The position numbers and the translations under genes are program-made. Positions 60,824 to 63,991 of a stretch of 64,000 nucleotides of DNA are shown here, in pieces. Location of the stretch: IMG/VR virus record IMGVR_UViG_3300020474_000993. One strand, written 5' to 3'. The notes beneath the pieces are model-generated. The model made no database searches. It saw nothing but the letters and a program-made list of their open reading frames with translations, and was not told the DNA's origin. Every line of letters begins with the position of its first letter. Position 1 is the stretch's first letter. Source of the stretch: a virus.

Positions 60824-61315
60824 TTGAGTCTGGTTCTTCGCGTGACAGGTGGAAACAAATTCCAAAAACAACTAGTGTTTGGTACGGTGCAATTTTGTAT
60901 GCACCGTCTTCTACCTAATGTGCGTAAACTAGATATTAATGTACATATCCGAAACTTCAAAGAAGATTCAAACATTGGATACTGTACCGATGATTCATCT
61001 GATGCCACTGACTTTGTTGGCAAATCACCTAGACGATTTCAGATTGAAATATCAAAAGACTTGAACTTGACAGATTTTATTAAGTGTGTCTTACATGAGT
61101 TTGTCCATCTCAAGCAGTTTGTACTTAGAGAGATGGTCGAATTAGATAGACAACGAACACGATGGAAAAGTAAGGTCATACCAGATACTACAAAATACTA
61201 TGACCAGCCTTGGGAGAAAGAGGCGTATCGACTTGAATCACAATTACTCTGGGAGTGCCTAGAGAATCAAGAATTTTTAACGAATAATATTAATGTAAAT
61301 GGAGTGAGAATATGA
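60824..61315 (+). CDS. HExxH metallopeptidase-like protein
   Basis: VLHEFVHLKQ...YYDQPWEKEAY. Confidence 0.75.
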   Translation: MSLVLRVTGGNKFQKQLVFGTVQFCMHRLLPNVRKLDINVHIRNFKEDSNIGYCTDDSSDATDFVGKSPRRFQIEISKDLNLTDFIKCVLHEFVHLKQFVLREMVELDRQRTRWKSKVIPDTTKYYDQPWEKEAYRLESQLLWECLENQEFLTNNINVNGVRI

Positions 61316-61470
61316 TTAGATGGTGTGTAGGATTCTTTTTAGTACTTGGTAGTGTTGGTGGTTTGGAAAATATGACCATGACTGTTACTGAGACTTTGGC
61401 GTTTGCCTTTATGGGGCTTGCGTTGATGGGTTGGGCGACTGCCGATTTCAATAAGCAATATGGCGAGTAA
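61312..61470 (+). CDS. 52-aa two-TM protein (translated by hand)
   Basis: MIRWCVGFFLVLGSVGGLE...LAFAFMGLALMGWA; ATGA overlap. Confidence 0.55.
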   Translation: MIRWCVGFFLVLGSVGGLENMTMTVTETLAFAFMGLALMGWATADFNKQYGE

Positions 61471-61473
61471 TTA

Positions 61474-61806
61474 ATGGGTATGATGCACATGGGTGGCAGT
61501 CTTCGATATGATATGTCTGGTCGTAAACGCAAGGCGTACAAGAAGAACAACCCAAAATCGAAAAACACTTTCGTGACAAAGACTATGCAACCCCTAAAGA
61601 TTGACCGTAGTCGCATTGAGGCAATGGAGGCGCATCGTAAGAAGTATCCTTCATTAGATACCTTGGGTGGTGGCAGTGGCACTAAGAATGACAAGTGGAT
61701 ACGAGAGAAACAAGAAATCTCATCTGGTTACACGGTTGCACCAGCATACAATAAAGGTGCCTACCAAGTAATCGGCAAATCCAATATAAAAGACATTGGA
61801 AAATAA
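61474..61806 (+). CDS. Conserved basic phage protein
   Basis: YPSL...YTVAPAYNKGAYQVI...IKDIGK. Confidence 0.7.
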   Translation: MGMMHMGGSLRYDMSGRKRKAYKKNNPKSKNTFVTKTMQPLKIDRSRIEAMEAHRKKYPSLDTLGGGSGTKNDKWIREKQEISSGYTVAPAYNKGAYQVIGKSNIKDIGK

Positions 61807-61819
61807 TTGAAAAAAACAC

Positions 61820-61869
61820 TTGACATTTGCAAAAAAGATCAGTATAATAGTTGTTAATGGTTATAAATA
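61820..61869 (+). promoter_or_regulatory. Tandem sigma70 and late promoters upstream of the tRNA
   Basis: TTGACA 61820-61825, 17 bp (GATC at 61837-61840), TATAAT 61843-61848; TATAAATA 61862-61869. Confidence 0.8.
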
Positions 61870-61874
61870 AGCAT

Positions 61875-61944
61875 GCGGTGGACGGTATTCGTACAATCCG
61901 TTTCCAACGGACAAGGTTAGGTGAGACTCCTAGACGCCGCTCCA
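61875..61944 (+). tRNA. Non-canonical tRNA-Gly(UCC), 70 nt, encoded CCA
   Basis: GCGGTG/CGCCGC acceptor with U73-CCA; anticodon arm TCCG-TTTCCAA-CGGA; mini D-arm GTA-TTCG-TAC; T-arm TTAGG-TGAGACT-CCTAG. Confidence 0.8.
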
Positions 61945-61949
61945 ATTAT

Positions 61950-62205
61950 ACAGTTGTAGTCCTAGGCAAAGACTCCATCCTGTCACAAGTTAAACTGCCT
62001 CGACTGAATGACGGTACTATAAGTACAATGCAGAGTAGGTCGTTAAACCATAAGGAGCCCTGAGCAGTGGCGCTAGGTAACACACAGACCGAAAAAGGCT
62101 CAGTCCATCGACTACAGAGGTCAGTGATGCCCTCGCATACAAAGATGGACGCAAGGGAGCTGGGCACCTCTCTGTATTTAAACTGCCCACTATTAATGGA
62201 GTTGT
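61950..62205 (+). ncRNA. Candidate ~250-nt structured RNA or riboswitch-like leader
   Basis: CTGAGC/GCTCAG, GTCCATC/GATGGAC and TGGGCA/TGCCCA hairpins; loop-loop TACAGAG/CTCTGTA; ACTCCAT/ATGGAGT covers the RBS of the next gene. Confidence 0.55.
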
Positions 62206-62208
62206 ACA

Positions 62209-62352
62209 ATGAAATACATTAGTATTTTTATCGTGTGTTTAATGATTTCGGCATGTTCTAGTAGGATAACACTTACCGCTGACACTGCCAAAGGTCAAGA
62301 TTTGGATGTCACAATCAGAACATCTCAATCAGGCACACCGACAGTAGATTGA
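62209..62352 (+). CDS. 47-aa lipoprotein (translated by hand)
   Basis: GGAG RBS; MKYISIFIVCLMISAC-SS lipobox. Confidence 0.65.
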   Translation: MKYISIFIVCLMISACSSRITLTADTAKGQDLDVTIRTSQSGTPTVD

Positions 62353-62425
62353 AAAGTTATAGAGAAAGATAATAAAGTCTGTCTGTCATATGCACCGAAC
62401 TTTTGTTACGATGCATCGAAATAGA

Positions 62426-62789
62426 ATTTGTGGGTGGTTAACATTTGTTAACTTTTATTTGAAAGAAAACGGAGTATAGTATGAAAAAAACTTCACAAGC
62501 AACAAAGGTAATTTCTGCCTTAGAGTCTACAGACAATGGTCTTACGGCTAATGAAATGAAAAATAGGTTTGGCGTAGTTAATGCGAGAGCATTAGTGACA
62601 CACCTTCGACAGAACGGTTTCGCCATTTATTTAAACAAAACCCCAAAGTACACTGACCGTAATGGTAATGTACGCAAAGGTGTCTCACGATATCGTTTGG
62701 GCACACCGTCTAGGGCAATTATTGCTGCTGGATACAAAGCTCTGGCTGCATCTAGCTAGAGTTAATTGAACCGTTAACTACCCACAAAT
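62426..62789. repeat. 17-bp inverted repeat pair flanking the 62481 gene
   Basis: ATTTGTGGGTGGTTAAC (62426-62442) and GTTAACTACCCACAAAT (62773-62789); 1 mismatch that is G-U in + strand RNA. Confidence 0.75.
62481..62759 (+). CDS. Winged-HTH DNA-binding protein
   Basis: LTANEMKNRFGV.NARALVTHLRQNGFAIYLN...YRLGTPSR. Confidence 0.75.
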   Translation: MKKTSQATKVISALESTDNGLTANEMKNRFGVVNARALVTHLRQNGFAIYLNKTPKYTDRNGNVRKGVSRYRLGTPSRAIIAAGYKALAASS

Positions 62790-62795
62790 ATTCGG

Positions 62796-62828
62796 AAAAA
62801 GGGGCGTCTTGCGATGCCCCTTTTTTTT
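62796..62828. terminator. Bidirectional intrinsic terminator between convergent genes
   Basis: AAAAA-GGGGCGTC-loop-GATGCCCC-TTTTTTTT. Confidence 0.85.
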
Positions 62829-62831
62829 AGC

Positions 62832-63002
62832 TTACACGCTCCACTTAGAACCGCGATAGATTCCAGATGTAGCAGGAATCCATTGCTCTCTTAGAGTGGG
62901 ATTATGTTTGACGCCACGATATAACATCTCTTGAGACTCAATTGTCTTATGAGTTATAGTTCCGTTATATTTAACGCCTCTGTAGTTTAGCTGTGTAGTC
63001 AT
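62832..63002 (-). CDS. DUF4278-like YRG-repeat peptide (56 aa, translated by hand)
   Basis: MTTQLNYRGVKYNG...MLYRGVKHNP...GIYRGSKWSV; AGGAGG RBS. Confidence 0.8.
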   Translation of the reverse strand: MTTQLNYRGVKYNGTITHKTIESQEMLYRGVKHNPTLREQWIPATSGIYRGSKWSV

Positions 63003-63024
63003 TTAACACCTCCTGTATTAAGAG

Positions 63025-63088
63025 ATGCGTTCCTTCGGCGGAATTGCCTACTTCCGTCCACCGCTACATTTAGGGTGGATGAACGAAT
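63025..63088 (-). ncRNA. Glutamine riboswitch (glnA motif)
   Basis: - strand ATTCGTTCATCCACC...GGTGGACGGAAGTAGGC...GCCGAAGGAACGCAT matches the CGUUCA..GACGGAAGUAGG..CCGAAGGAACG core. Confidence 0.85.
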
Positions 63089-63134
63089 GTAGTCTTTTCA
63101 CCCATGACTTATGGAGTACCGATTGGTACAGTAT

Positions 63135-63142
63135 TATTTATA
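63135..63142 (-). promoter_or_regulatory. T4-type late promoter driving the riboswitch transcript
   Basis: TATAAATA on the - strand. Confidence 0.7.
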
Positions 63143-63991
63143 CTAACTTATCTTCACAAAGAAAGAAGATTGGTCAACATCTGAACTCGCGTATCTAAAC
63201 ATCTTTGTTATAAGGTCATGTTGTTTTGCCTTACTTGTACCAGTTGATGCAAATGCTTCTATGAACATTAGACAGATAGACTTAGACATTCTAAAGTTGT
63301 CACCTTGTTCGTGGTTTGCCCACTCTTGTAGAAAGACCTTTTCCGATACTAGGTCTATTGATGGTTTACTTTTGGAGTTATGTTTCTTGTAAAGTTGATA
63401 TGCCTTTGATGGCCACTTCTTATCCGTCTTGATAGAAGATAGAAATGCTTTTTCAGAACCTTTACCATTGTAAATGTCATTATTGAATATTTGTTTACAG
63501 TAGAAGTCTACATTACCTCCACCTATCTTACCACCAGCTGCAGAACCGCCTTTTATCTCACCCTGCCATGAAGTGTCGCCACCAAATGTTCTGAATTGTA
63601 TCTCACCACCATTAGTATCTATGTAGATGTCTTGAGAACTAAAGAAGTCCCCAGTTTTACCGAACTTGAAACTACCGTATGTAAATGTATCTCTGTTCGC
63701 TATTTGTTTCGGGGTATTGAACTCTTTCGCGGTTGCAGGCGAACCCTTACCTAGTTTCTTGAGTGATATACCAAGAAGTTTACCCGCCTTTGCGAGTCTC
63801 ATTACTTCTGCTTGCAAGTCTCCCCAACTAGATGTGCTTTCTGATAAAGGGGTTTCTAAAGAACCAAATGTAGTTGCCCATATATCGCCTGGGTTCCATT
63901 TGTCATGTGAAAATGAACCTGGCGCTTGTGGGTTATCTGACGCTTTATCTATCTTATGACATTCTGCCTTGGCATCATATAGTCCTTTCAT
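63143..63991 (-). CDS. Conserved phage protein, possibly PD-(D/E)xK-like (probably 5'-truncated by the window edge)
   Basis: KWNPGDIWA and LLGISLKK motifs. Confidence 0.55.
   Translation of the reverse strand: MKGLYDAKAECHKIDKASDNPQAPGSFSHDKWNPGDIWATTFGSLETPLSESTSSWGDLQAEVMRLAKAGKLLGISLKKLGKGSPATAKEFNTPKQIANRDTFTYGSFKFGKTGDFFSSQDIYIDTNGGEIQFRTFGGDTSWQGEIKGGSAAGGKIGGGNVDFYCKQIFNNDIYNGKGSEKAFLSSIKTDKKWPSKAYQLYKKHNSKSKPSIDLVSEKVFLQEWANHEQGDNFRMSKSICLMFIEAFASTGTSKAKQHDLITKMFRYASSDVDQSSFFVKIS

Follow-up and report, generated by a model that had tools for sequence, protein, structure and literature searches.

The 64,000-nucleotide (nt) stretch of DNA analyzed here (hereafter the window; IMG/VR virus record IMGVR_UViG_3300020474_000993) is a contig of a marine T4-like phage, and encodes a T4-type DNA polymerase and ribonucleotide reductase (RNR) genes. 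Between a 110-amino-acid (aa) gene at 61474–61806 and a 47-aa open reading frame (ORF) at 62209–62352 it carries a tRNA-Gly-like gene followed by ~250 nt, which an earlier note on this DNA had proposed to be a structured RNA masking the ribosome-binding site of the 47-aa lipoprotein. We find that a genuine non-coding RNA, conserved and strongly transcribed, is made from the ~250-nt stretch. From its sequence and that of its relatives, we read it not as a single large aptamer but as a series of small folds that each form on their own, namely three H-type pseudoknots (PK1, PK2 and PK3) and two hairpins, and the pairing pattern places PK3 in a widespread module of ~32 nt. The locus is laid out as follows, with S1 and S2 denoting the first and second stems of a pseudoknot, L1 and L3 its loops, and SD the Shine-Dalgarno sequence.

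61820–61848, plus strand: sigma-70-type early promoter, TTGACA-17 nt-TATAAT, a 12/12 match to the consensus with a predicted start at ~61855.
61875–61944, plus strand: tRNA-Gly-like gene of 70 nt whose triloop holds UCC and whose CCA is encoded, the 5' neighbor of the RNA on the same transcript.
61958–62000, plus strand: PK1, a module-like H-type pseudoknot from the blind pseudoknot scan; S1 61958–61/61971–74, S2 61964–68/61996–62000, and a 21-nt L3 ending in TTAAAC.
62008–62033, plus strand: variable hairpin, present in three versions or deleted among the relatives (alignments A2 and A3).
62054–62103, plus strand: PK2, a diverged pseudoknot; S1 62054–59/62069–74 (with an A·G mismatch), S2 62060–65/62098–103 (hairpin 1 of the earlier note), and an A-rich L3 of 23 nt.
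62103–62150, plus strand: bipartite hairpin; outer 7-bp stem (hairpin 2 of the earlier note) invariant in 10 of 10 sequences, inner stem 62117–22/62129–34.
62154–62189, plus strand: PK3, a canonical module member; S1 62154–59/62168–73, L1 C62160, S2 62161–66/62184–89 (hairpin 3 of the earlier note), and a 10-nt L3 ending in TAAAC.
62198–62352, plus strand: lipoprotein SD GGAG (62198–62201) and 47-aa ORF (62209–62352), from the ORF listing and the lipobox.
62481–62759, plus strand: winged helix-turn-helix (wHTH) gene of 92 aa (Pfam HTH_39, 1.1e-7; phrog_4973), the last gene of the transcript, crossed by RNA contigs.
62798–62829, no strand assigned: G+C-rich hairpin between an A-run and a T-run, read from the sequence as a likely bidirectional intrinsic terminator.

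The stretch is present in 13 runs recorded as RNA, and we compared the RNA contigs of four metatranscriptome studies (X1, X5, X7 and X10) over 61000–63200. A single 916-nt contig of X1 spans 61875–62787 with zero differences, its 5' end lying exactly at 61875, while X7 gives 61972–62785, X5 gives 61883–62644 and 62621–62786, and X10 gives 61895–62048, 62153–62645 and 62616–62784. High-identity contig cover from these four studies was missing over 61000–61470 and 62850–63200. Cover of 61875–62787 without cover of the flanks fits a single transcript running from the promoter towards the hairpin and T-run at 62798–62829, and speaks against carry-over of DNA. The locus appears to yield an early transcript of ~0.95 kb which, from the promoter onwards, takes in the tRNA-Gly-like gene, the ~250-nt RNA, the lipoprotein gene, the wHTH gene and the terminator. 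Indeed, a non-coding RNA co-transcribed with the odd tRNA was among the options raised in the earlier note, and this option holds up: the cassette is conserved in every relative and RNA contigs join its parts. The contigs of all four studies terminate at 62784–62787, ~40 nt before the terminator hairpin, which could reflect a processing site or an effect of assembly. These ends fall within the 3' arm of a 17-nt complementarity (one G·U; 62426–62442/62773–62789) that brackets the entire wHTH ORF.

GenBank phages gave no blastn match to 61800–62360. Exact-word scans with invariant pieces retrieved five IMG/VR contigs and eleven metagenome contigs, and a degenerate acceptor-stem pattern returned the known contigs again together with one chance match. 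Alignment A3 comprises ten distinct sequences, namely the window and nine relatives. The order of the cassette (promoter, tRNA-like gene, RNA, lipoprotein start) is kept in all relatives found, and the promoter is unchanged in every relative of alignment A1. Most relatives are 85–90% identical to the window over the RNA (78% in L134 and 96% in L201), as compared with ~72% for the DNA of the lipoprotein gene in the relatives with a match and 70–76% for the upstream gene. The G+C content is 0.48–0.49 over 61900–62199, against ~0.35–0.44 in the flanks. It might be argued that such a locus is mostly a passenger, i.e., a mobile early-promoter cassette whose folds are left over from duplicated copies of the module and do little today. 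Four different invariant probes return the same five IMG/VR contigs only, so that the family is narrow; the cassette is missing from 80 loci with homologues of the upstream 110-aa gene, and downstream of that same gene in more distant relatives; and one hairpin is freely replaced or deleted. However, the RNA is more conserved than the adjacent coding DNA, carries compensatory changes and is expressed in several studies, and we consider the passenger explanation quite unlikely.

The complementarities listed in the earlier note are all present, namely the three hairpins, the loop-loop pair TACAGAG/CTCTGTA, the anti-SD pair ACTCCAT/ATGGAGT and the repeated TTAAACTGCC at 61990 and 62178, as is the 47-aa ORF with its lipobox. 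Taken from a single sequence, such complementarities are not above chance: a blind scan for H-type pseudoknots found three sites, the best with 6 + 6 bp, and this best site was matched in 7% of dinucleotide shuffles (p ~0.07). Across the ten sequences, the loop-loop 7-mer is intact in two (the window and L201), the 3' strand reading CTCTTCA elsewhere without compensation, and the anti-SD helix is likewise intact in two (54% of cells paired), the other eight SD regions reading GAAGGAC. As judged from the alignment, both pairings are lineage-specific coincidences. A riboswitch or processing-dependent switch in which 61972–78 pairs with 62196–202 and hides the lipoprotein SD would have the 7-nt complementarity of the window and L201 on its side, and the SD region of the other relatives could pair with GTCCT (61960–64) over 5 nt. 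A complement of 5–7 nt within 250 nt is near chance, however, and the proposed pairing is missing in eight of the ten sequences, while the SD region is unpaired in the minimum free energy (MFE) fold of 61856–62215. Nor did Rfam 15 supply an aptamer or any other family match, either to the RNA at gathering thresholds or at E<=10 on 61700–62500 or 62145–62200. ACTCCAT, the 5' strand of the anti-SD pair, is indeed invariant in 10 of 10 sequences, because it supplies S1b and L3 of PK1. We regard SD masking as very unlikely. Checking for conserved helices thus had a divided outcome, in that the RBS-masking idea fails and the core helices of the RNA stand.

All three pseudoknots are built on a short hairpin whose loop has its partner strand on the 3' side. 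The S1 loop of PK1 carries TAGGCA, the partner of 61996–62000; the pairs of PK1 are invariant in the ten sequences and thus show no covariation. CATCCT...TAAACTGCC, which corresponds to the repeated TTAAACTGCC, is common to PK1 and the PK3 of the relatives, suggesting an origin by duplication. A tag-peptide frame after PK1 was considered and rejected, since by eye a stop codon interrupts it in L134. The variable hairpin that follows has 4 bp in the window, L201 and L183, is absent from L134 and is longer in the other six relatives; it behaves like an expansion stem. In PK2, the L134 lineage has A-U in place of G-C at the S2 pair 62064–62099, a replacement that excludes a competing GAGCC/GGCTC pairing, and by eye the S1 pair 62058–62070 changes from C-G to G-C in L134, a change masked by MAFFT gap placement. 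The inner stem of the bipartite hairpin has one position mismatched in every sequence, and its pair 62120–62131 changes from G-C to A-U, again in L134. In PK3 the 6-bp S1 encloses C-TGGGCA-C, the strand 62184–89 comes after TTTAAAC, a G·U pair of S1 is A-U in 8 of the 10 sequences, and the 3' end lies 8 nt upstream of the lipoprotein SD. The three hairpins of the earlier note have therefore fared differently, hairpin 1 covarying, hairpin 2 never varying, and hairpin 3 being invariant in the family of the window while covarying across the wider module family. An RNAalifold helix, 62034–46/62178–91, was rejected; it is broken without compensation in L109 and L198 and competes with S2 of PK3. Between the helices, long unpaired tracts are invariant as well, e.g., 62075–62097.

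A probe derived from PK3 retrieved unrelated contigs that carry the same 17 letters and then ten identical further letters. From these matches emerges a common layout: a stem of free sequence, C, UGGGCA, the return strand of the stem, N-UAAAC and UGCCCA, that is, a free stem of 3–4 bp, a 1-nt C loop, a purine-rich second stem of 6 bp, in most cases UGGGCA/UGCCCA, and an N-UAAAC loop. The search pattern fixed just the two S2 strands and TAAAC, leaving S1 free, and matched at least 118 viral loci (IMG/VR) and at least 120 genome loci (GTDB). The genome matches listed come from Omnitrophota, Planctomycetota, Bacteroidota, Chloroflexota, cyanobacteria (Nostoc, Scytonema and Thermosynechococcus among them), CPR and others. 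Gap length peaks at 6 nt in 97 of 125 viral and 68 of 125 genome matches among those listed, where chance would give a flat distribution. The three inner pairs of S1 are formed in 140 of 145 instances with several types of pair, and the covariation score was reached by none of 500 shuffles. Among 76 unique viral instances, all four S1 pairs form in 46, where shuffling the partners would give 6.1, and as many as 28 different S1 tetramers occur in these 46. A converse search that required S1, C and TAAAC and placed no demand on S2 split the candidates into two groups, 25 having 0–3 pairs and 30 having 5–6 pairs, and the S2 variants of the latter group were complementary, as in TGAGCA/TGCTCA, TAAGCA/TGCTTA, TAGACA/TGTCTA and others.

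A covariance model (R1) built from the 145 instances outside the family of the window found PK3 as its sole significant match in the 64-kb window (18.3 bits, E 2e-4). By eye, PK1 and PK2 have a module-like layout (C-TAGGCA...TAAAC-TGCCT and C-TGAGCA...GCTCAG, respectively), yet R1 detects neither. Rfam 15, searched with module loci and with 56–61-nt pieces, holds no family for the module, the nearest hit being a 9-bit partial alignment to GP20-b. Literature searches with the motif letters yielded unrelated vector and primer sequences only, and those on Rrf2, pseudoknots and intergenic phage motifs gave no description of the module. Nor is a module present in the 41.7 kb of S-EIVl, a cultured cyanophage related to one of the contigs that bear it.

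Among the matches listed, the module lies between genes in 90 of 109 instances from viruses and in 58 of 72 from genomes; in phages, its S1 starts 5–9 nt past a same-strand upstream stop codon in 43 of 134 cases, and its end lies a median of 28 nt upstream of the next start codon. The genes upstream include those for SSB, Hsp20, the major head protein and RNR. The module is also found ahead of tRNA genes and, in some contigs, a promoter. It lies directly upstream of tRNA genes at five loci in other phage contigs, at one of which (L281) a weak Rfam tRNA match (20.9 bits; gathering score 29) begins four nt past the module. Among 128 genes downstream of the module, matches were to 57 Pfam families, with no single gene family or pathway. 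That the PK3 fold recurs before unrelated genes, tRNA genes and promoters is unlike what would be expected of a ligand-specific switch for the lipoprotein gene. In some contigs of phages and of metagenome-assembled genomes, several successive intergenic gaps carry a module, as at L319 and L396 (four each), and seven further loci have two or three copies each. At L319 the module abuts the SD of four consecutive small genes and has a conserved 10-nt 5' extension.

In Omnitrophota and in other bacterial genomes, a conserved leader ORF of 25–27 codons has its stop codon overlapped by the module, and these cases have a U-run after the module, upstream of Rrf2 and RNR genes. The leader ORF, seen at nine loci in Omnitrophota, Planctomycetota and others, has the consensus ...KYMLRPVAHCKEGCS..SWARR, with its last codons and stop inside the module and usually a U-run after it; NCBIfam has no family for the leader peptide. 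Such an arrangement is what would be expected if the module acted on RNA polymerase, and an attenuator or pause array in the window would set the ratio of tRNA-like RNA to downstream mRNA. A T-run follows the module in 35 of 252 instances among the matches listed, but the U-run is missing from most phage instances, and in the window there is none after 62000, 62103 or 62189. A scan of 61800–62400 likewise finds no terminator-like site, and RNA contigs bridge all three knots, with similar X10 depths on either side (29.8 vs 21). We consider attenuation in the phage unlikely.

The tRNA-like gene was called neither as a tRNA nor by Rfam, ARAGORN reporting neither tRNA nor transfer-messenger RNA (tmRNA) in the stretch, although paired changes are present in its anticodon-like and T-like stems in L183, L196 and L134. 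In L183 and L196 it is 79% identical to the window, with many differences and stems that change in pairs, while the RNA downstream is 87–90% identical, and the two parts have therefore evolved at unequal rates. In the relatives the homologous lipoprotein is 53 aa long, and its signal peptide is conserved, as are an I-[ST]-A-C lipobox and a DLDV motif; the protein has no Pfam, PHROG or PADLOC family match, and a homologue search gave just its own cluster. These results speak neither for nor against the role in superinfection exclusion, like that of Llp or Cor, which the earlier note had suggested for it. The 110-aa gene has 535 confirmed homologues in marine viral contigs and no Pfam or PHROG match. 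On the other side, the likely terminator at 62798–62829 is common to the cassette and a converging riboswitch gene: the minus strand of 62832–63087 carries a glutamine riboswitch (RF01739, 63024–63087; 60 bits, E 1e-10) and then a 56-aa DUF4278 ORF with three YRG[VS]K repeats.

An early phage RNA with knots in tandem brings to mind type III antitoxins, and the RNA could in principle be a pseudo-ToxI that neutralizes a ToxN-like abortive-infection toxin of the host. We see no more than a resemblance here. The units are unequal, both in sequence and in length (43, 50 and 36 nt), the module mostly occurs as one copy beside unrelated genes, and the neighbors are the lipoprotein and wHTH genes, neither of which has a defense-family match in PADLOC, with no ToxN/AbiQ-type or other defense protein nearby. 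We regard such mimicry as highly improbable. A more general trans-acting role would be that of a decoy, in which the processed RNA is stable and abundant, and its knots and invariant loops sequester a factor, of the host or of the phage, that normally recognizes the module. The three module-like units in tandem, the consensus promoter, the presence in many metatranscriptomes and the invariance of the unpaired tracts are all in line with a decoy, and the occurrence of the module in cyanobacterial genomes means that a host partner could exist, although we know of no such partner. On the other hand, the S2 variants retain just a purine/pyrimidine strand bias that a self-contained fold would explain, the RNA contigs link the RNA to the ORFs at similar depth, and complementary targets in the window are not above chance (30 10-mers complementary to the RNA were found, where ~30 were expected). 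A decoy thus seems to us rather unlikely.

The reading we favor, while giving it somewhat less than an even chance, is a role in cis in which the knots cap and insulate the downstream message after the tRNA-like RNA has been excised. Enzymes of tRNA processing would cut out the tRNA-like part, and the knots left at the new 5' end would act as mechanically stable 'punctuation', blocking exonucleases or 5'-end-dependent decay and keeping folds further upstream from interfering with the ribosome-binding site that follows. In this way the message for the lipoprotein and the wHTH protein, or else a stable by-product RNA, would stay abundant early in infection, and the RNA would regulate without hiding the SD. 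We favor the cis role because the fold is compact and probably triplex-stabilized, because the module punctuates intergenic gaps by highly expressed genes, and because T4 gene 32 provides a precedent. The leader of T4 gene 32, with its pseudoknot, stabilizes the mRNA, and compact triplex-rich knots resist helicases and exonucleases. A broader formulation, which we find possible but would not bet on, is that PK3 and probably all three knots represent an uncatalogued, very widespread, self-folding module, set by phages and by bacteria of many phyla in leaders and right behind stop codons, that serves as a general RNA punctuation mark by stalling or blocking a ribosome, an exonuclease or RNA polymerase, and that the phage has strung three of them behind the tRNA-like RNA to armor its early message or to titrate the machine concerned.

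Several observations weigh against a protective role of folded knots in cis. The MFE z-score of 61856–62215 (360 nt) is +0.22, with 55 of 100 shuffles folding equally well, and all compensatory changes inside the phage family trace to one lineage, L134. For PK1, which is invariant, RNAalifold gives a nested alternative that is conserved to the same degree, and both PK1 and PK2 miss E<=10 with R1, a model built from short-loop instances, where these two carry long inserts in L3. The invariant unpaired tracts hint at sequence-specific recognition, which a role in stability alone does not cover. Contigs cannot reveal the true ends or levels of an RNA, so that the ends at 61875 and 62784–87, like the parts of 61000–63200 lacking cover, are weak hints only, and processing of the tRNA-like part is therefore inferred. 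Lastly, in bacterial genomes the module mostly occupies 5' leaders, where a leader ORF and a U-run often accompany it, which points to attenuation rather than protection there.

Among known RNAs, GP20-b (RF03003) is a phage cis-regulatory candidate, named as a previously predicted motif (PMC10690425). The 5' half of its consensus resembles the module in layout, a hairpin that ...GCA/UGC... closes coming after a short 5' strand, and an A-rich UAAAA immediately preceding the 3' strand, and it is likewise phage-borne. A canonical module instance, however, scores 9.1 bits against a GP20-b gathering score of 36.2, the window gives no match, and GP20-b, which includes a further hairpin, goes with a single gene family, where the module adjoins many. 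The pseudoknot in the mRNA leader of T4 gene 32 (cited in PMC10690425 and PMC3014915) is likewise an H-type pseudoknot in a 5' leader of a T4-type phage, located upstream of the ribosome-binding site without overlapping it. It differs in being the gp32 operator, found before gene 32 only and without sequence similarity to the knots of the window, which lie between a tRNA-like gene and a lipoprotein gene and recur beside unrelated genes.

The frameshifting pseudoknots of the luteovirus type (BWYV) are small, with an L1 of 1–2 nt containing C and an A-rich L3. The module is similar in size, in its C-containing L1 and in an A-rich L3 suited to minor-groove triples, as well as in its position 5–9 nt downstream of the last decoded codon. 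In contrast to frameshifting signals, it is found behind stop codons (mostly TAA, by eye) and ahead of a gene with an SD and start of its own, no slippery sequence is seen at the module, and the knots in the window follow a tRNA-like gene rather than an ORF. The tRNA cluster of T4 co-transcribes the small stable RNAs species 1 and 2 (rnaC/rnaD). These resemble the RNA in the window in being non-coding and transcribed early with phage tRNAs, and are released by tRNA-processing enzymes, but the RNA in the window continues into two ORFs. A tRNA-like domain combined with a series of pseudoknots is also a feature of tmRNA and of the 3' ends of TMV and TYMV. ARAGORN finds no tmRNA, however, and the tRNA-like domain of the window is contiguous and 5'-terminal, with a local acceptor stem; there is also no conserved tag ORF, owing to indels and, by eye, stop codons in the variable region. 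As compared with the plant viruses, the order of the parts is reversed.

For this phage, the riboswitch reading is replaced by a concrete anatomy and a defined transcription unit. Beyond it, the module, whose short length lends itself to direct study by biochemical and structural means, is small, conserved and widespread, with both helices covarying and a preference for positions 5–9 nt behind stop codons. This makes it a good candidate for a general means by which mRNAs are punctuated, protected or attenuated.

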